In this document: one piece after another, positions 1,396-12,997 of the stretch | Numbering within the stretch: the first letter of the stretch is position 1 | Layout: every line of letters begins with the position of its first letter | Source: a virus | Direction: 5' to 3' (one strand) | DNA: 13,011 bases | Virus genome (UHGV): UHGV-1813710 | Notes under the pieces: model-generated | The model's input: the letters and a program-made list of their open reading frames with translations, nothing else | What the model was told of the DNA's origin: nothing | The model's database searches: none | Program-made: the position numbers and the translations under genes

Positions 1396-1450
1396 ATAGA
1401 CCCCTTATTGGTTGTGGTTTCTGTAAACATATAAATAATTAATAATGGTT

Positions 1451-1684
1451 TTACTTCGAGCCAATGCGCTTCTTGCTTATCTCCAGCAAGTATTTTGCGG
1501 TGTATTTGCCTTTTGAAGCTTTGGCTATTTTGTTTGCGTAATCGGTCTCGCCACAAAAGTCCGTTCGGGGCAAGGAACCTTTTGAGATCCACTTGTAAAT
1601 TGCTCTTGGTGTGCGCCCGCAACAACTTGCAACCAACAGCACGCCTATTTCTTTCAAGGCATCACCTAACGTCTTATTTTCCAT
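1451..1684 (-). CDS. Cro-like HTH DNA-binding protein (Cro/YdaS-type)
   Basis: 77-aa ORF divergent from the repressor gene. AGGTGA Shine-Dalgarno 5 nt upstream of the ATG at 1684. The segment GRTPRAIYKWISKGSLP looks like the recognition helix region of Cro/YdaS-like proteins. Confidence 0.7.
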   Translation of the reverse strand: MENKTLGDALKEIGVLLVASCCGRTPRAIYKWISKGSLPRTDFCGETDYANKIAKASKGKYTAKYLLEISKKRIGSK

Positions 1685-1689
1685 GCTCT

Positions 1690-1773
1690 CACCTATAAAA
1701 TGAACTTAAAGTACATTCTATGTCAGAACTGAAAGTACATGCAAATGATTCTACAATTGAACCCATGGTACAA
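1690..1773. promoter_or_regulatory. OR-like immunity switch: three 17-bp bipartite operator-like repeats with putative divergent promoters
   Basis: Repeats ATGAAC-TTAAA-GTACAT (1700-1716), CAGAAC-TGAAA-GTACAT (1724-1740) and TTGAAC-CCATG-GTACAA (1757-1773). Candidate leftward promoter on the minus strand: TTGCAT (plus 1744-1739), 18-bp spacer, TAGAAT (plus 1720-1715). Candidate rightward promoter: -10 TACAAT at 1752-1757, placing the transcript start near the ATG at 1765 (leaderless, as for lambda cI). Confidence 0.45.
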
Positions 1774-2700
1774 GACGAAAAAGTGCGGAAAGATTTTGCC
1801 CAGCGGCTAGCACTGGCCTGTAGAGAAGCGGGGCTTGATGATCATGGCCGTGGCACTGAAATAGCCAAGGCGCTAAAGGTTACGGCCAAGGCTGTCAGCA
1901 AATGGCTCAATGCTGAGGCGTTGCCTCGTCAGCCCAAGATGGAGGCGCTGGCAAGGTTCCTGAAGGTCGATATGATATGGTTGCAGCATGGTAAGCGTGA
2001 CTCAAGATCTGCTGATGAGCAGGACGGGATCATTAAGTACAAGGATTTCGCAGATAGGCTAAACTCTCTCATGGGCGATAAGGGGGTGGACGTGAATCAA
2101 TTAAAAGAAATCTGCGATGTCACATTTGAAGTAGCGCGAAGTTATACACTTGGTGTATCAAAACCACGGGATGAAGCATTAGAGAAAATAGCTAATTTTT
2201 TTCAAGTTTCAATGCCATTTCTCGACTATGGCGTAGTTGATGACTCGCAACCATCTTCCGATACTGAAAAATTACAGCAGTTAGCTGTTTACGCCTCGGC
2301 TGGACGTAGCGGATATATAAATTCAGAGTTCCCAGAGGTCATCCGATCGATTGAAATACCCAAAGAGAGGATCTATGAGCTTTTTGGGAGAAAAAGCCTT
2401 GATGGTATCAGCATCATGAACATCAACGGCGATAGTATGATCCCAACTCTCAACCCTAGAGATCTTCTTTTTATTGACACTAGAATTGATAGTTTTAATG
2501 GCGATGGCGTCTATGTATTTTGTTTTGAAGATGCAATGTTTGTTAAGCGATTACAAAGAGTTAAGGGTAGAAGGTTATCAGTAATTTCAGATAATAATGT
2601 TTACCCTCCATTTACAATTGAAGAAAATGAAATGTTTGAGCTGTACATATATGGAAAGTTGATAAAACAATTACCAATGAAGCTCATTGATTTCGCTTAG
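1765..2700 (+). CDS. CI-type prophage repressor with two tandem HTH (XRE-type) domains and a C-terminal S24 (LexA-like) autopeptidase domain
   Basis: C-terminal region contains GDSM (catalytic Ser) and FVKRL (catalytic Lys) plus an Ala-Gly candidate cleavage site (YASAGRSG). Two separate HTH-like segments precede it (…TEIAKALKVTAKAVSKWLN… and …LKEICDVTFEVARSYTLGVS…). Start ambiguous: ATG 1720 (track) or ATG 1765; 1765 is preferred because 1720 lies among the operator repeats and the putative leftward promoter. Confidence 0.85.
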   Translation: MVQDEKVRKDFAQRLALACREAGLDDHGRGTEIAKALKVTAKAVSKWLNAEALPRQPKMEALARFLKVDMIWLQHGKRDSRSADEQDGIIKYKDFADRLNSLMGDKGVDVNQLKEICDVTFEVARSYTLGVSKPRDEALEKIANFFQVSMPFLDYGVVDDSQPSSDTEKLQQLAVYASAGRSGYINSEFPEVIRSIEIPKERIYELFGRKSLDGISIMNINGDSMIPTLNPRDLLFIDTRIDSFNGDGVYVFCFEDAMFVKRLQRVKGRRLSVISDNNVYPPFTIEENEMFELYIYGKLIKQLPMKLIDFA

Positions 2701-2717
2701 CCCTGCCAACCAAACTT

Positions 2718-2745
2718 AAAGCCGACAACTGTCGGCTTTTTTTTT
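2718..2745 (+). terminator. Rho-independent terminator downstream of the repressor gene
   Basis: Stem GCCGAC (2721-2726) pairs with GTCGGC (2731-2736) around a 4-nt loop, followed by nine T residues (2737-2745), 18 nt after the stop codon. Confidence 0.8.
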
Positions 2746-2783
2746 GCAATAATTTCAATAAATTAAATACAACAACCAATAAA

Positions 2784-2830
2784 ATGTACTTCTGGTACTT
2801 GATTAAATTGAACCAATAGTACATTATAAA
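2784..2830 (+). promoter_or_regulatory. OL-like site: two more copies of the operator motif overlapping a putative rightward promoter
   Basis: TTGAAC-CAATA-GTACAT at 2808-2824 (same orientation as the OR copies) and ATGTAC-TTCTG-GTAC at 2784-2800 (inverted copy with a perfect GTACAT half-site on the minus strand). Centres are 24 bp apart, the same spacing as OR copies 1 and 2. TATAAA at 2825-2830 is a possible -10. Confidence 0.4.
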
Positions 2831-2898
2831 TCCATCAACCGCAGTCACTAGCACTATCAGTGGTTGTGGATACTTAAGAGACTTAGGTGGGAGTTCAA

Positions 2899-3159
2899 AT
2901 GACTAGTTATTACACGTGCTCTTTTTGCGGGATACGCGAGCAGGATGCTAAAAGGATTGTTGCCAAGGGTGGCAGAGATGAGCCAGCAATCTGCTCTAAG
3001 TGCATTGTCTCATGTGTAAATGTCATTATTAACGCAGGAACAGTAATGGAAATAGAGAAAAAAGGCGCCAATAAGGGTGAATTAATCCTTGATATGGAAT
3101 TGGCACCTCGATCAGAAAAAATGTCATTTACTCAGACTGAGGTAGCTCAATCGGATTAA
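2899..3159 (+). CDS. Small protein (86 aa) with a ClpX-type C4 zinc-finger (ClpX N-terminal zinc-binding-domain-like) and no ATPase domain
   Basis: Sequence MTSYYTCSFCGIREQDAKRIVAKGGRDEPAICSKCIVSCVNVII has C-x2-C-x19-C-x2-C and parallels the ClpX N-domain (recalled E. coli motif YCSFCGK…RKLIAG…ICDECVDLCNDII). GGGAG Shine-Dalgarno 6 nt upstream of ATG 2899; the track's 2887 start is GTG. Confidence 0.65.
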   Translation: MTSYYTCSFCGIREQDAKRIVAKGGRDEPAICSKCIVSCVNVIINAGTVMEIEKKGANKGELILDMELAPRSEKMSFTQTEVAQSD

Positions 3160-3403
3160 GCGCCATTGACGCCATTGGTAGCTGAATCAATGAGATCGGC
3201 AAGTTGGATAAACTTCTCTCTACCAGTTGACCTTAAGACACTACTGGCATTAGCAGAACAAGCATCACTGGAATATGCCGCTAGCAAGCATATAGCGGTC
3301 TTTAAAGCGCCGAGTTCTTCAATTAAACCTTCTGGCGTTACGTCGTTATCAAGTGACAGTGTGAAATTTGGCATTTTTATCTCTATGTGATTGGTGTACG
3401 ACA

Positions 3404-3458: not shown

Positions 3459-3971
3459 TTAGAAGATCATTGGAGCGATATCTATTGGCTCATATGCCGA
3501 TTTGTTCATTAGAAAAAGGCTGGCGCAATGAAAGCATTTGCATTGTTCAAAGTAACAAGAGTTATTCGAATTATATCCAACCTCTCCTGTTGGCTGGAGT
3601 ATCGATACTATTTTTTGTGTGAAGCATTTTGGGCAAAGATGCACGGCTATTTGCATTCCGTTAACAGATTCATTCTTAGAATAAACAAACGTTCCAGAAT
3701 CAAGCTGGTTCAGAGCATAACCTTCAGTCTGGCTTTTAAAGTCTTCGAACTCTGCAATTTTTGCTTTGAGCGTTACGGCTTCTTCCTGATAAAAGCGTGC
3801 AAGCTCAATGAGCGACATGCATTCACGCTGCACAGACGTAAGCTTTAAAACCATATCGCTAACAGCAGAATTTATCTCTGCCTGTGTTTTTGCATTTGAA
3901 ATAACTTTCGCCAAAGCAGTCGTTTCTTTAATTGCCGACATTGCAGCTGTGATTTCAACAAACACTTTCAA
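3459..3971 (-). CDS. Hypothetical protein (170 aa): helical/coiled-coil N-terminal half, Cys-rich C-terminal half; AT-rich moron-like gene
   Basis: Protein-like ORF convergent with the flanking rightward genes; the opposite-strand ORFs (3528-3848, 3808-4008) look like antisense artefacts. C-terminal half has a CPKC…C…CKCFHC pattern suggesting metal binding. TTG start at 3971 with no clear Shine-Dalgarno; alternative ATG at 3941. Sequence is visibly more AT-rich than neighbouring phage genes. Confidence 0.5.
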   Translation of the reverse strand: MKVFVEITAAMSAIKETTALAKVISNAKTQAEINSAVSDMVLKLTSVQRECMSLIELARFYQEEAVTLKAKIAEFEDFKSQTEGYALNQLDSGTFVYSKNESVNGMQIAVHLCPKCFTQKIVSILQPTGEVGYNSNNSCYFEQCKCFHCASLFLMNKSAYEPIDIAPMIF

Positions 3972-5843: not shown

Positions 5844-6377
5844 GTGAATAGCCCTTATATTATTACCTTCTCAGGTAAAGCATTTAATTTAATCGAGCCT
5901 CAGCGCGAGCAAATAGTGATCGAGGATATTGCTCATGCGCTAGCGAGAGAAAACCGCTTTAACGGTCACACTAAGGCCGCATACAGCGTTGCCCAGCACT
6001 GCTATCACGCATCATTTTGTGTACCGCCAGAGTTCGCACTTGAGGCGCTAATGCATGATGCTGCCGAGGCTTACATCAAAGATATTCCATCACCAATAAA
6101 GCTTCTTTTGCCAGATTATCGCGCATTAGAAAAACGCGTTGAAATGGCTATCTGCGAACGATTTGGCCTACCACTAGCGCTGAGTAGCTGCGTCAAATAT
6201 GCAGACCTCATCATGCTGGCATCAGAAAAACGCGACCTTGGCATCGTCGATGAAAAACCGTGGCCACTTTTGGAAGGTATTCCAGTTGCTGATTTCACTA
6301 TCGAACCAATGACTGCAGAAGTTGCCGAGCATCTCTTTATGGGGCGCTACGTAGAATTGACGGAGCTATGCAAATGA
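5844..6377 (+). CDS. HD-domain phosphohydrolase (YfdR/YfbR-like nucleotidase family)
   Basis: HD-domain signature H…H…HD: IAHALARENRFNGH…YSVAQHCYH…EALMHDAAEAYIKDIPSPIK, plus VKYADLIMLASEKRDLG. GTG start at 5844 with GGAG 11 nt upstream. Confidence 0.75.
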   Translation: MNSPYIITFSGKAFNLIEPQREQIVIEDIAHALARENRFNGHTKAAYSVAQHCYHASFCVPPEFALEALMHDAAEAYIKDIPSPIKLLLPDYRALEKRVEMAICERFGLPLALSSCVKYADLIMLASEKRDLGIVDEKPWPLLEGIPVADFTIEPMTAEVAEHLFMGRYVELTELCK

Positions 6378-6754: not shown

Positions 6755-7499
6755 ATTATCAACTGAGCGTTTAGAAAAATTCGTCAACGATATTAAAACT
6801 GATGGGATGTGCGACATAACTGATTATCAAGTTGCGTTGGCGTTACGTCAGTTACTGGCATACGAGCAAGCAGTACCGGTATTACCTAAACAGCCTGAGA
6901 CTCAGTTCGATGAAATCGCGCTTGATACTGCAAGAGAGATTATGCGTGATGTAAACCAGCGCCATGAATTGATTGGCGGTGAGTGTCAGTTGCTTGCGCG
7001 CACTCAGTGTCGAATTAATGACGTACTGTGTAACGTCGCAGCACCAGCACAACCTGTAATACCAGAACAAGCTAAGCCTGTGGCATATACAGACAATAGA
7101 AACTTAAAAAGTCTACAGAAAGGATGTAATACGGCATTGCTCTGGCTTAAGCATAACGCCGAAGTTGGTGATATTCCTCTATATACCGAAGTGCCGACAC
7201 AACCTGTAAGCGAGCCTTACAAGCTACCAGTCGGATATTTTTCTTATGGCTCTGAGTGTGGTTTTGATTGGCACAATACAGAGAAAGAAGCGATTGAAGC
7301 TGCCGAGGCTGTAATTGACAACTATCGCGGTGATGCGTGCGACGGCTGGTCTGAGGAAACAGACAGTGTCTGCTGGGGTGTCATTTTGCAACAGGCAACA
7401 AAGGTCGATGAGCGCCCACGTACTGATGATGATAAATGCGATCCGGCTATTGATACGGTCTGTGATTACGCGCTACTACCGGCGCAGGAGAGCGAATAA
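6747..7499 (+). CDS. Hypothetical phage protein (250 aa), Cys-containing C-terminal region
   Basis: Start overlaps the upstream gene by 8 nt, with a GGGGG Shine-Dalgarno. Ends in …AQESE, whose codons form the Shine-Dalgarno for the next gene. Confidence 0.6.
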   Translation: MSELSTERLEKFVNDIKTDGMCDITDYQVALALRQLLAYEQAVPVLPKQPETQFDEIALDTAREIMRDVNQRHELIGGECQLLARTQCRINDVLCNVAAPAQPVIPEQAKPVAYTDNRNLKSLQKGCNTALLWLKHNAEVGDIPLYTEVPTQPVSEPYKLPVGYFSYGSECGFDWHNTEKEAIEAAEAVIDNYRGDACDGWSEETDSVCWGVILQQATKVDERPRTDDDKCDPAIDTVCDYALLPAQESE

Positions 7500-8263
7500 T
7501 GCGCCCTCACTTTCACGGAACCCCGATTTGGGGGAATGCTGGCGATGTTTTGCGTGTTGCTGTTAGCGGAGCTGGTGCATTCGTTTCTTACGTTAGACCA
7601 GACCAGATTGAGCGCTGTTTTAAATATGCGGATAGTGTAGCTATCGATAACGGCGCGTTTTCAGCATGGAAAAGCGGCAAGAAATTGGATTGGAATAAAT
7701 TCTATGAATTCCTGTACAGGCATTATCACCGCTCAAAGCTTGCATTTTTTTGTATTCCAGACGTTGTGGAAGGTGGTGAAAGCGATAACGACGCAATGAT
7801 TAAAGCCGTTCCGCACATATTCAAAGAAAAAGCAGCTCCGGTTTGGCATTTACACGAATCTATCGAGCGCTTAATTCGTTTGTGCGAAGAGTGGCCGCGC
7901 GTGTGTTTTGGCTCGTCTGGTCAGTACGCGCGAACATTAACAAAGCTATGGCATGAGCGCATGAAAGAAGCTTTCACGGAGATTTATATCAAGCGCCAAC
8001 TGACAACGAAAATACACGGACTACGCATGCTTGATGGTCGCATTTTGGGTAACTACCCGCTACACAGCGCAGATAGCACAAACCTAGCATGCAACGTTCC
8101 AAAATTTAACATGAAGTATCCAGAGCTAACCCGAGCTGTATTAGATAAGGGGTATGGTCAAGACATGGTTCAACTACACCGTTGCGCGATTCTAAAAAAC
8201 TCAATTGAGTCAGTAACACCGCCGAGCATCGCGGCGTGGGTAGCTGCACAGGAGAGCGAATAA
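7499..8263 (+). CDS. Hypothetical phage protein (254 aa); weak, unverified resemblance to tRNA-guanine transglycosylase (TGT)/DpdA-type proteins
   Basis: TAATG overlap with the upstream gene. Segments HGTPIWG, VAIDNGAFSAW and GLRMLDG loosely parallel the TGT segments PVGTYG, LTDSGGFQV and GIDMFDCV (recollection, not a computed alignment). Confidence 0.6.
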   Translation: MRPHFHGTPIWGNAGDVLRVAVSGAGAFVSYVRPDQIERCFKYADSVAIDNGAFSAWKSGKKLDWNKFYEFLYRHYHRSKLAFFCIPDVVEGGESDNDAMIKAVPHIFKEKAAPVWHLHESIERLIRLCEEWPRVCFGSSGQYARTLTKLWHERMKEAFTEIYIKRQLTTKIHGLRMLDGRILGNYPLHSADSTNLACNVPKFNMKYPELTRAVLDKGYGQDMVQLHRCAILKNSIESVTPPSIAAWVAAQESE

Positions 8264-9563: not shown

Positions 9564-9782
9564 ATGGCGAAAGAAGCTAAATTGATGCGCGCGAGCGCGT
9601 GGGGCAAGCGTGAGTTCGAGGTGGGTTCTATTCCTGATAATAGAACTATTAGGCGCTGGATAGAAAATGGCCGTTTGCGTGGCCGGATTGTTGATGGAAC
9701 CATTTTGGTTTATTCATCTGAACGCTGGGGTATTGAGTCTGTTGTATCCCACCACGTACATAATTTAATTAGTGAATCATGA
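9564..9782 (+). CDS. xis: Excisionase (lambda Xis-like)
   Basis: Lies immediately upstream of int with an ATGA overlap. Segment RTIRRWIENGRLRGRIVDGTILVYSSE parallels lambda Xis ETVRRWVRECRIFPPPVKDGREYLFHES. GGAG 9 nt upstream of ATG 9564; the track's 9519 start lacks a Shine-Dalgarno. Confidence 0.75.
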   Translation: MAKEAKLMRASAWGKREFEVGSIPDNRTIRRWIENGRLRGRIVDGTILVYSSERWGIESVVSHHVHNLISES

Positions 9783-10960
9783 TGGCAGCTCGACCACGCA
9801 AGCGTGAAAACCGGCACCTTCCCGATCTGCTGTATTTCGATAAAGTTGCCGGCGTTTATCGCTTTACCCTAATCACGGGAAAGAGAAAATCATTAGGCTC
9901 TGACCGTGCTTTAGCAATCGCTATTGCGCGTGAATATAACAATAGAATGCGACCGGATATAGTTGTATCAGTTGACTCGCTTATTAGTGAATCGGGCGGC
10001 TTGAAGGGGGAATCCCTGCCCTTCTCCAGTCATGTTGATCATATTCTCGCTCGTGCTATCACGGACGAGAAACCAAGCCCTGATACAAAGGCTGACTGGA
10101 TGAATGATGCAAAACGAGTGAAAGAATTCTTCATTGACATTCACTGCTGCGATATTGAACTAGAGCACGTCAATGCGTTCATTCAGCATTATCATGCTGA
10201 AGCATCAGCAAACGTACAAAACCGCAAAGTTAGTTTTCTAAAGAAATTATTTAGTTATGCAGTAGACGAATCGTTAATGTTCGATAATCCAGCAACTAGA
10301 AAGAAAATGCGGAGAATTGAGGGGAAAGTTCGCCAACGCTTATCTTTCGACAATCTGATGGCTATACGAAACGCCGCGGATCGATGGCTGCGAACTGCGA
10401 TAGATCTAGCTCTACAGACAACGCACGCCCGGCTTGAAGTTTCCCGAATTCGCTATTCAATCAAAGAGCCCAAAAATGGCGTGTGTGGCTGTGTGTGGTT
10501 CGACGCTCCAGAGAGTGGGATTTATGGCGTTATGTATATACACAGGCAGAAAGTGCAGCACAAAGAAGCATCACACGTCGCAATACCAATCGGGCCTGAA
10601 CTTAAAAGAATTATTGATGATAGCCGCGACAATGCTGCTAGCCCATACATTGTTCATCGTTTACCAAAACGCAATAATAAGCCAAGCAAAGAGGTTTCAC
10701 ATCCTACACAAGTAGCGCCAGACTACTTGAGCCGGGCATTCTCAACACTTCGAGATGAGCTCGGGATTTGCTCACATCTTGAAATGGATGAACGTCCGAC
10801 ATTCCATGAAATCCGAGCGCTTGCTGCACACCTATTTGATACGCAAGGCATTGACCCACAGGGCCGCATGGCTCACAGCGACGCTAAGTCGACTAAGATA
10901 TACACGCAAAATCATATCGATTGGGTCATGGTGCCGCACGGCGAGATCAAGACGGGATGA
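9779..10960 (+). CDS. int: Tyrosine site-specific integrase, lambda Int family
   Basis: N-terminus RENRHLPDLLYF…GKRKSLGSDRALAIA parallels lambda Int HERRDLPPNLYI…GKEFGLGRDRRIAIT. C-terminus has PTFHEIRALAAHLF (H-x-x-R box) and …STKIYTQNH (catalytic Tyr). Adjacent to xis and to the tRNA-derived att core. Confidence 0.95.
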   Translation: MMAARPRKRENRHLPDLLYFDKVAGVYRFTLITGKRKSLGSDRALAIAIAREYNNRMRPDIVVSVDSLISESGGLKGESLPFSSHVDHILARAITDEKPSPDTKADWMNDAKRVKEFFIDIHCCDIELEHVNAFIQHYHAEASANVQNRKVSFLKKLFSYAVDESLMFDNPATRKKMRRIEGKVRQRLSFDNLMAIRNAADRWLRTAIDLALQTTHARLEVSRIRYSIKEPKNGVCGCVWFDAPESGIYGVMYIHRQKVQHKEASHVAIPIGPELKRIIDDSRDNAASPYIVHRLPKRNNKPSKEVSHPTQVAPDYLSRAFSTLRDELGICSHLEMDERPTFHEIRALAAHLFDTQGIDPQGRMAHSDAKSTKIYTQNHIDWVMVPHGEIKTG

Positions 10961-11037: not shown

Positions 11038-11094
11038 GTCGACAACCTAGAGAAACCAGTGCTGGCGCGGGTTTCAGCGTGTTGAATACGCTAA

Positions 11095-11140
11095 CATGGG
11101 GTGTCGGGGGTCGGAGGTTCAAATCCTCTCGTGCCGACCA
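11095..11140 (+). other. Partial tRNA: 3' about 45 nt of a tRNA-Pro-like gene (anticodon loop to CCA), i.e. the att core repeat at the prophage boundary
   Basis: T-arm GGAGG-TTCAAAT-CCTCT (11113-11129), acceptor 3' strand CGTGCCG, discriminator A and CCA (11138-11140). No complementary 5' acceptor strand (CGGCACG) upstream, so the tRNA is not intact. GGG sits at the inferred anticodon position and the string matches my recollection of enterobacterial tRNA-Pro. Confidence 0.65.
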
Positions 11141-11989: not shown

Positions 11990-12997
11990 ATGGCTAATTT
12001 TTATTACATGGATACAGACAAAAATTTCAATCATGAAAATGATTCACTATTCAAAAAAAACACTATTAAAACAAGCAATAACAATCTAAAAGTACTAAAT
12101 ATTGCATTCTGTTTTGATGATAATTTTGTGATGCCAACAGGTGTAGCCATTGCATCTGTCATTGAAAACAATAAAGACTCGCACCTCCACTTTCATTTAT
12201 TCTTCGAATCCATTTCTGAAAAAAACAAATCTAGAATACTTGAGATACAAGGTGATAACGTTTCAATAACAACATATGAACTTCAGGAAGAACTATCCGT
12301 CAATCCTAATACACTCATTCTGGGAATCCCAAAGTCCACGTGCTTAAGATTTATGGTTCCTTTTGTTCTACGGCATGAGGTTGATTCTGTTTTATATTTG
12401 GATGGCGATATGATTTGCTTAGATTCATTACACGCCTTACATGACCTAAACCTTAAAGGACATATTGCCGCTGTAGTTGCTGACTCTAAAGAGATGCAAC
12501 AGAAAGCCAGCACACTAGGATACGGTATTGATACCGATAAATATTTCAATGCAGGATTTTTATTTATCAATGTATCTGAGTGGAATTTTAAAAATGTCAC
12601 CGCCGTGGCATTTAACATGATCAATAGCGGTACAATTTATAAATATGCCGATCAGGATGTATTAAATATACTCTTAAACGAAAACATTAAATTAATTGAC
12701 AAGAAATATAATAAAACTATAACGCTAAGCCCTATCGATAGGGTAGATGATAATGCATCTCGTGGCACAACCATTTTGCATTATGTTACAAAAAATAAAC
12801 CGTGGTTTATGATATTTGAGTCTCAGATTTTCTTTTATTACCTGAATCAATCTCCATGGAAAGACACGCAATTAAAACTGACACCTAATGCTAGCCTGCT
12901 TAGAATAAAGGCAAAAAAACTCCTTTCTGATAAGAAATTTGTCGATTGGATAAAATATTTCTCCCTATATATTAAATATAAATTATTTAGCAAATAA
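11990..12997 (+). CDS. Glycosyltransferase family 8 (LPS/LOS glycosyltransferase-like, RfaJ/LgtC type)
   Basis: GT8 hallmarks: NIAFCFDDNFVMPTGVAIASV (nucleotide-sugar binding region), YLDGDMIC (DxD motif), NAGFLFINVSEW, YADQDVLN and HY…KPW. Very AT-rich gene preceded by an AT-rich promoter-like region. Confidence 0.8.
   Translation: MANFYYMDTDKNFNHENDSLFKKNTIKTSNNNLKVLNIAFCFDDNFVMPTGVAIASVIENNKDSHLHFHLFFESISEKNKSRILEIQGDNVSITTYELQEELSVNPNTLILGIPKSTCLRFMVPFVLRHEVDSVLYLDGDMICLDSLHALHDLNLKGHIAAVVADSKEMQQKASTLGYGIDTDKYFNAGFLFINVSEWNFKNVTAVAFNMINSGTIYKYADQDVLNILLNENIKLIDKKYNKTITLSPIDRVDDNASRGTTILHYVTKNKPWFMIFESQIFFYYLNQSPWKDTQLKLTPNASLLRIKAKKLLSDKKFVDWIKYFSLYIKYKLFSK

Follow-up and report, generated by a model that had tools for sequence, protein, structure and literature searches.

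How does a phage repressor that carries two DNA-binding domains in tandem read its operators? The question is raised by a stretch of 13,011 nucleotides (nt) from the UHGV virus genome UHGV-1813710 (the window, analysed at its full length), in which a cI-type repressor gene with two consecutive XRE-type helix-turn-helix (HTH) domains, HTH1 and HTH2, lies among five operator-like sites at positions 1,690 to 2,830. An earlier note on this DNA had proposed that the two domains of one polypeptide occupy the two halves of an asymmetric site. Our analysis favours another answer, to which we give a probability of about three in four: the switch would belong to a lambdoid prophage and be a diverged, non-Shiga toxin (non-Stx) member of the immunity class of phage 933W, with an HTH1 and a Cro-like protein of that type. 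The sequence comparisons presented here indicate that HTH2 is not needed to account for the operators, and that it is present because the gene is a natural in-frame fusion.

Symmetry and distribution of the operator sites

The five sites had been described as direct motifs without palindromic symmetry, three of them at OR-like positions in the cro/cI gap and two at OL-like positions past the cI terminator, over divergent promoters as in lambda. Their placement was borne out (Table 1), while the description of the motif was not. A search of the window for TGAAC-N5-GTACA with up to one mismatch returned four sites (1701, 1725, 1758 and 2809), where 0.62 were expected. For the core GWAC-N5-GTWC there are exactly five matches in the 13 kb, always in OR or OL, against an expectation of 0.32, and none of 200 shuffled sequences reached five. 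The fifth core, at 2786, belongs to the 15-mer 2785-2799, TGTACttctgGTACT, which has T at position 3 of both halves. Since the reverse complement of GTACA is TGTAC, the sites are pseudo-palindromes: each is a 15 bp inverted repeat whose half-sites, TGAAC and TGTAC, match at four of five positions and differ at the third base. G2, A4 and C5 are kept in all ten half-sites of the window, all of which fit G-(A/T)-A-C at positions 2-5.

Operators of the same form are used by repressors with one HTH domain. In a translated search of phage records, HTH1 was 72-74% identical to the N-terminal domain of CI from Salmonella, lambda-like and Stx phages, including phi24B, which its record describes as 'similar to bacteriophage 933W' and for which five operators are annotated there (Table 1). 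The OR and OL regions of the window, of the only other tandem-HTH locus found (L001), of phi24B and of the HTH1-type loci L007 and L009 align column for column, with operator spacings of 24, 33 and 24 bp in the window and 24, 32 and 24 bp in phi24B, L007 and L009. The core of OR2, GAACTGAAAGT, is identical in the OR2 of these last three. L007, L008 and L009 carry NGWAC-N5-GTWCN sites arranged as in the window. The cro/cI gap has two of them flanking a degenerate third, another covers the start codon of cI, and right of cI two more follow at a spacing of 24 bp. The CI of phi24B/933W and its metagenomic relatives P0063 and P0065 have a single HTH, with the same five operators at the same positions. 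In agreement with this, the cro-like gene of the window aligns with the cro genes of L007, L009 and L001, and not with that of L005, a locus of the HTH2 lineage; in Pfam, its product had no matches beyond weak ones to HTH families.

The 933W operator was defined by binding assays, in vitro selection and DNase I footprints as a rotationally symmetric site of 15 bp, in which positions 2-5 are critical, position 1 hardly matters, and position 3 accepts T or A, with T giving more than 3-fold tighter binding (PMC3317979). Its repressor produces symmetric DNase I protection, contacts both half-sites and reads GAAC as well as GTAC halves; K46 is essential for specific binding, as judged by mutation, K42 is a modelled base contact, and Ser41 affects both the affinity and the reading of position 2 (PMC3317979). 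HTH1 of the window keeps K42 and K46. The A/T asymmetry between the half-sites of the window falls exactly at position 3, where 933W tolerates both bases. It is also variable among the relatives: OR1 of phi24B is fully palindromic, the single-HTH phages likewise mix A and T half-sites in the OR/OL alignment, both halves of OR2 in L001 (TGAAC..GTTCT) carry A at position 3, and in OL1 of L001 (TGTAC..GTTCA) the orientation seen in the window is reversed. As the window and L001 have orthologous sites, these do not count as independent observations.

Domain structure of the repressor

The longest open reading frame (ORF) covering the locus, 1720-2700 on the plus strand, encodes 326 aa. As the earlier note had stated, it specifies a CI-type S24 repressor with two HTH domains, since Pfam finds two HTH_3 stretches followed by Peptidase_S24 (PF00717, E = 3e-15). 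An AlphaFold2 model was built from an alignment of 42 sequences (A2), with residues counted from the Met at 1765, and reached a mean predicted local confidence (pLDDT) of 85. It shows the two HTH domains as distinct bundles of five helices each (residues 2-75 and 93-155) and, after a second linker, an S24 beta domain. The segment between the HTH domains is disordered at residues 76-87 (pLDDT < 50), and the second linker, residues 177-190, which contains Ala179-Gly180, is of equally low confidence (pLDDT < 50). Because the predicted template-modelling score (pTM) was 0.49, the domains are taken to have no fixed mutual packing. The catalytic dyad, Ser224 and Lys261, is invariant in A2. By these features the protein is classed as a LexA/CI-type repressor, with an S24 Ser/Lys dyad and an Ala-Gly pair in a flexible linker, for which RecA-stimulated cleavage is predicted.

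The repressor gene as an in-frame mosaic

A search of 5.8 billion proteins returned two full-length matches, P0001, which is identical and is encoded on contigs from three independent samples, and P0002, which is 72% identical and is encoded at L001, where the DNA is 70% identical and the open frame, architecture and junction are the same. Every other match covers a single part. About 40 clusters of single-HTH repressors of 228-262 aa match ORF residues 106-326 only, that is HTH2 and S24, at 55-77% identity, and a second set of 181-266 aa, nearly all single-HTH S24 repressors, matches residues 1/16-97 only, that is HTH1, at 60-74% identity. Similarity of the DNA extends to the HTH1-type loci L007 and L009 up to 1994 and to the HTH2-type locus L005 from 2047, which places the junction at 1994-2047, and the GC content, 54% in HTH1, drops to 40% in HTH2 and to 36% in S24. 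Since the homologues cover either part, the DNA similarity switches at the junction and the GC content falls, we read the gene as an in-frame mosaic. Orthology to the 933W-type repressors accordingly fails for the whole protein: the similarity stops at about residue 91-97, and the remainder belongs to another lineage.

These comparisons indicate that a repressor of the other lineage, with HTH2 and S24, was kept almost whole, from about its fifth residue onward. Its first few residues have given way to about 90 from a 933W-type repressor, which comprise the N-terminal domain and the linker. The fusion is judged to be real and natural, because the identical protein occurs in three samples and a 72% identical gene shares its architecture and junction. 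We also rejected the idea that HTH2-S24 is made as a product of its own from an internal start, as no in-frame ATG, GTG or TTG is present near the junction in either tandem gene.

At third codon positions, GC is 57% in HTH1 and 34% in HTH2 and S24 together, with a sharp break within 1765-2697. The tandem gene of L001 has no such compositional break (51, 48 and 46% GC in HTH1, HTH2 and S24, respectively), and this contrast suggests that the C-terminal modules were swapped by recombination after the fusion had formed.

The fusion is rare, being represented by two protein clusters on four contigs. A HMMER pass over 1.84 billion cluster representatives gave no further full-length close relative, and none was obtained from species-representative genomes scanned with the HTH1-HTH2 segment and with an alignment of the two tandem proteins. 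A scan of viral contigs yielded no tandem relative, just L011, a single-HTH phage of the second lineage. No near-identical DNA to 1400-3200 was found among phage records and E. coli genomes, and solved structures gave, by sequence, only weak generic XRE matches. A literature search found no description of a tandem-HTH S24 repressor; the Neisseria cI paper that it returned concerns single-HTH proteins only.

Lineage and state of the second HTH domain

The lineage that contributed HTH2 and S24 occurs widely among Enterobacterales (Yersinia, Providencia, Citrobacter, Enterobacter, Erwinia and Pantoea) and has apparent operators of its own: the HTH2-type loci L005, L006 and L011 carry CTAC-N5-GTAG palindromes at places equivalent to the operators of the window, and no GWAC sites. 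In L005 these lie at 2963-2975, 3031-3043, 3818-3830 and 3841-3853, and in L011 at about 2428-2440 and 2496-2508. The third site of this lineage, CTACTTATGGTAG, encodes M-V-E and has the cI ATG in its spacer, a layout homologous to that of the 933W type. The half-sites of the two types differ mainly at the outermost base, C or G. Neither the window nor L001 contains an exact CTAC-N5-GTAG site. With one mismatch, three copies were found in the window and four in L001, where about five were expected, all of them well away from OR and OL; the three of the window all lie inside listed ORFs.

The recognition helix of HTH2 reads YEMARRY in all 39 cluster representatives of the lineage and in L001, and FEVARSY in the window. 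When the recognition helices of the AlphaFold2 model are matched (41-48 against 121-129), the Arg that has become Ser corresponds to the essential K46 of 933W, and two further changes lie in the preceding helix and turn. In the window, the HTH motif is no better preserved than the remainder of the domain, being 64% identical to that of the single-HTH proteins P0003 and P0004, compared with 67-73% elsewhere in the domain; the motif of L001 is 91% identical to theirs. In the window, HTH2 is thus probably a passenger or spacer domain that still folds, but its ability to recognise specific DNA has probably been lost or changed.

Weighing the 933W-type switch against the alternatives

Some observations sit poorly with a 933W-type switch that is worked by HTH1. 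Position 3 is A in four of five left halves of the window and in none of the five right halves, which is of marginal significance (Fisher p ~0.05). Ser41 of 933W is Ala in HTH1 of the window and Pro in L001. A whole extra domain separates HTH1 from the dimerisation domain, so that the geometry may differ from that of 933W. Finally, the window and L001 are about as similar in HTH2 (70% identity) as in HTH1 (71%), the nonsynonymous divergence (dN) being ~0.22 in both and the synonymous divergence (dS) saturated; the inter-HTH linker is only 25% identical. As HTH2 is conserved between the tandem genes and the linker is not, HTH2 has been maintained as a folded unit, and its conservation suggests that the domain does something. 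We downgraded this as evidence of function, because L001 has a C-terminal module that resembles those of P0003 and P0004 (80-84% identity in HTH2 and 92-95% in S24) more than that of the window (70% and 86%, respectively), and recombination with a single-HTH phage may have brought this module in anew.

The conservation of HTH2 at the level of HTH1 over so divergent a linker would also be expected if one gene conferred two immunities, HTH1 running its own 933W-type switch and HTH2, on its native S24 scaffold, binding the CTAC-N5-GTAG (CTACTTATAGTAG-type) sites of incoming heteroimmune phages. The retention of nearly the whole second repressor in the fusion, the invariant recognition helix kept by L001 and the wide distribution of the second lineage all fit such dual specificity. 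Against it, the recognition helix of the window lacks three lineage-invariant residues, including the K46 equivalent, the intact helix of L001 may just reflect recent recombination with a single-HTH phage, and a family limited to two clusters among 5.8 billion proteins shows no sign of a strong advantage. We regard dual specificity as unlikely, and as more plausible for the L001 copy than for that of the window, whose HTH2 helix has diverged. Should it hold, other HTH-HTH-S24 proteins (P0165, P0171, P0187 and P0070) might equally have arisen by capture of a foreign N-terminal domain, a prospect that is just as doubtful.

The arrangement proposed in the earlier note, taken here to mean that a single polypeptide sets HTH1 over TGAAC and HTH2 over GTACAT, a helical turn further along, is very improbable. 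Four of the five sites of the window do have A on the left and T on the right, the flexible inter-HTH linker of ~17 residues could physically permit such binding, and mycobacteriophages have a repressor that binds an asymmetric site as a monomer, through two domains (PMC9283540). The same operators are nevertheless used by the single-HTH repressors of phi24B/933W, L007 and L009, the 933W site is symmetric and both GAAC and GTAC halves are read by its repressor (PMC3317979), and the relatives of HTH2 use CTAC half-sites, the HTH2 of the window being also without the invariant Arg of its lineage. The asymmetry at position 3 is not conserved (T/T in OL2 of the window, A/A in OR2 of L001, flipped in OL1 of L001), A and T half-sites are mixed in single-HTH phages as well, and the repressor has a dimerisation domain. 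An artefact, in which misassembly or a sequencing frameshift had joined two genes into the tandem ORF, can be set aside: the GC break at the junction is sharp and all sources are metagenomic or read-archive assemblies, but the identical 326-aa product comes from contigs of three independent samples, the frame stays open and the junction is the same in a copy that has diverged to 70% DNA identity, and there is no in-frame ATG, GTG or TTG near the start of HTH2 for a separate second gene.

Start codon, promoters and proposed mechanism

The cI start is likely the ATG at 1765 rather than that at 1720, because the latter is absent from L001 and most single-HTH relatives of HTH1 start at the equivalent Met (e.g. 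P0063, P0065, P0068 and P0072-P0079). The 15 codons from 1720 to 1765 correspond to OR2 and OR3 translated in frame, 'SELKVH' being OR2.

The putative PR-like promoter of cro scores under the threshold of the promoter scan; OR2 fills its spacer, OR1 abuts its -10 element, and a Shine-Dalgarno sequence, AGGTGA, follows. By analogy with lambda PRM, the putative PRM-like promoter would yield a leaderless cI mRNA starting at ~1764-1765, inside OR3. Between the OL sites, a CTTG core is conserved in all five aligned loci (TTGATA in phi24B, TTGATT in the window). The terminator that the earlier note had placed after cI, with the OL-like pair beyond it, was found as a hairpin at 2718-2739 with a T-run.

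In the region 1691-1720, OR1 shares long A/T-rich flanks with OL2 (ACCwATAAAATG...) and with OL1 (TAAAwTGAAC...GTACATTmTA) in the region 2775-2828. These shared OR1/OL1 and OR1/OL2 flanks (families D3 and D4) are not conserved in L001 and are probably promoter-proximal sequence or the trace of an OR/OL duplication. A role for them as extra contacts of HTH2 was rejected, as they are A/T-rich, promoter-proximal and not kept in L001.

By homology to characterized switches, the repressor would dimerise through its S24 domain, and the two HTH1 copies of the dimer would read the two halves of each 15 bp operator, N-G-W-A-C-N5-G-T-W-C-N. Occupation of OR1 and OR2 would shut the leftward cro promoter, and that of OL2 and OL1 the rightward PL-like promoter, while OR3, over the start of a probably leaderless cI message, would provide negative autoregulation. 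RecA-stimulated self-cleavage at Ala179-Gly180 would release both HTH domains from the dimerisation domain and lead to prophage induction.

Table 1. Features of the immunity region in the window (positions from the first nucleotide) and annotated operators of phi24B
Feature	Position	Strand	Sequence	Remarks
cro-like gene, 933W-type	1451..1684	-		77 aa; divergent from cI
OR1	1701..1715		TGAACTTAAAGTACA	Orthologous to annotated phi24B OR1; just downstream of the putative leftward -10
Putative PR-like cro promoter	1715..1744	-		-35 TTGCAT (1744-1739), 18-nt spacer, -10 TAGAAT (1720-1715); read from the sequence
OR2	1725..1739		AGAACTGAAAGTACA	24 bp from OR1
Putative PRM-like promoter	1729..1757	+		-35 CTGAAA, 17-nt spacer, -10 TACAAT; promoter scan
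OR3	1758..1772		TGAACCCATGGTACA	33 bp from OR2; spacer holds cI ATG (1765-1767)
cI-type repressor	1765..2700	+		311 aa counted from Met 1765
HTH1, 933W-type N-terminal domain	1765..1992	+		Residues 1-76; recognition helix 41-48, K42 and K46 kept
Inter-HTH linker	1993..2040	+		Residues 77-92; holds the mosaic junction
HTH2, second repressor lineage	2041..2232	+		Residues 93-156; recognition helix 121-129, FEVARSYTL
Predicted autocleavage site, Ala179-Gly180	2299..2304	+		ASAG motif, kept across HTH2-lineage relatives
S24 autopeptidase/dimerisation domain	2332..2697	+		Ser224 at 2434-2436, Lys261 at 2545-2547
Intrinsic terminator after cI	2718..2747	+		Hairpin 2718-2739, 9-bp stem, 5 G-C pairs, then T-run
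OL2	2785..2799		TGTACTTCTGGTACT	GWAC-N5-GTWC search and OL alignment
Putative PL-like promoter	2799..2827	+		-35 TTGATT between OL2 and OL1, 17-nt spacer, -10 CATTAT; read from the sequence
OL1	2809..2823		TGAACCAATAGTACA	24 bp from OL2
phi24B OR1			CGTACTTTCAGTACG	Record annotation
phi24B OR2			TGAACTGAAAGTTTT...	Record annotation
phi24B OR3			CGTACTCATGGTTCA	Record annotation; spacer also carries cI ATG
phi24B OL2			CGTACCAATAGTTCT	Record annotation
phi24B OL1			CGAACTATTGGTTCA	Record annotation

Neighbouring genes

Lambdoid phages usually have N at the first position downstream of PL. The first gene past the PL-like promoter of the window, 2899-3159 on the plus strand, encodes a protein of 86-90 aa with a ClpX-type C4 zinc finger (PF06689, E = 4e-7); the product is assigned to phrog_5259, of unknown function, and is conserved in the identical contigs L002 and L003. 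Two further early-left genes lie at 5844-6377 and 7499-8263 on the plus strand. One is 5'-deoxynucleotidase-like (phrog_318, with a weak YfbR-like Pfam match) and the other falls in phrog_887, annotated as 'queuine tRNA-ribosyltransferase', with no Pfam match; the pair may form a DNA-modification or nucleotide-metabolism module. At the far end of the window, a lambda-type integrase gene (9779-10960, plus strand) is followed by tRNA-Ser(tga) (11057-11140, plus strand) and, in a stretch of 32% GC, by a gene for a family-8 glycosyltransferase (11990-12997, plus strand). The integrase and tRNA-Ser stretch is probably the prophage end with its attachment site at the tRNA gene, with host or lipopolysaccharide genes beyond it.

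Other repressors with additional domains

The HTH-HTH-S24 order recurs in unrelated lineages: P0165, P0171 and P0187 have two HTH_3 domains each, and P0070, from a Neisseria metagenome-assembled genome, combines HTH_23, HTH_3 and S24. At the P0070 locus (L012, 1925-1985), beside a CP76-type cII, the divergent cro/cI gap contains three TACC-N4-GG[TG]A sites, of which TACCCCTAGGTA and TACCTGTAGGTA are perfect palindromes and TACCCATAGGGA is an imperfect one; they are not asymmetric sites. P0093 and P0179, S24 repressors of ~323 aa, show a weak match to an AHJR-like restriction-endonuclease fold between HTH and S24, below the Pfam gathering score, which by sequence would be another kind of insertion at the same linker. 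In P0114 (1002 aa) and P0132 (703 aa) we found four to six matched stretches, the best of which spans the two HTH domains of the query; these proteins are possibly arrays of XRE-type HTH domains.

Significance

The operator system itself is already known, and the rarity lies in the chimeric repressor. A 933W-type reading extends an experimentally dissected switch to a diverged, non-Stx prophage, in which the naturally variable operator positions are 1 and 3, as the 933W binding data predict. It would leave our understanding of phage switches unchanged unless dual specificity holds. The gene also represents a natural experiment in modularity, as a foreign DNA-binding head was grafted in frame without removal of the resident one. 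It thereby raises the questions of whether a CI-type repressor works with its operator-reading domain one domain away from the dimerisation and cleavage module, whether such fusions can carry two immunities, and what becomes of the displaced HTH, which here is apparently losing its recognition residues.

Comparison with known systems

The closest system is that of 933W and phi24B, studied by the Koudelka laboratory (EF517298). The window shares with it the 15 bp G-W-A-C operators, three OR and two OL sites at nearly equal spacings, an OR3 over the cI start codon, a -35 element between OL2 and OL1, and a homologous cro. It differs in that position 1 of the operators is mostly T and not C, that the C-terminal domain is not of the 933W type, that a second complete HTH stands between HTH1 and S24, and that no stk gene lies between cI and OL.

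To the single-HTH S24 'HI_1476-like' lineage of enterobacteria (P0003-P0041), the repressor is 55-77% identical over the 221 residues of HTH2, the ASAG linker and S24; the cI of the Providencia phage PSTCR8lys, a member of this lineage, is 58% identical. The neighbouring genes are also alike, namely a CP76-type cII, YfdP and DUF2303. In contrast, the HI_1476-like proteins start ~4 residues before the junction and lack HTH1, their operators are CTAC-N5-GTAG, and their cro is unrelated.

With lambda CI and the LexA family, the window has in common an N-terminal HTH, a flexible linker with Ala-Gly, an S24 Ser/Lys domain, a divergent cro and both an OR and an OL region, while it departs from them in having two HTH domains in tandem and two OL sites rather than three. 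In hybrid repressors made in the laboratory, such as those with helices or domains swapped between 434 and P22, a module that binds DNA with one immunity specificity functions when joined to an oligomerisation module from a different type. The repressor of the window differs from such hybrids in being natural and in having retained the recipient's own HTH, which in the hybrids was replaced. Finally, the monomeric immunity repressor of cluster-A mycobacteriophages is the precedent for one polypeptide that binds an asymmetric site with two DNA-binding domains (PMC9283540). That protein combines unrelated folds, an HTH and a second domain, has no S24, and binds truly asymmetric sites scattered over the genome (PMC9283540), whereas the window has pseudo-palindromic sites, which occur in OR and OL only.

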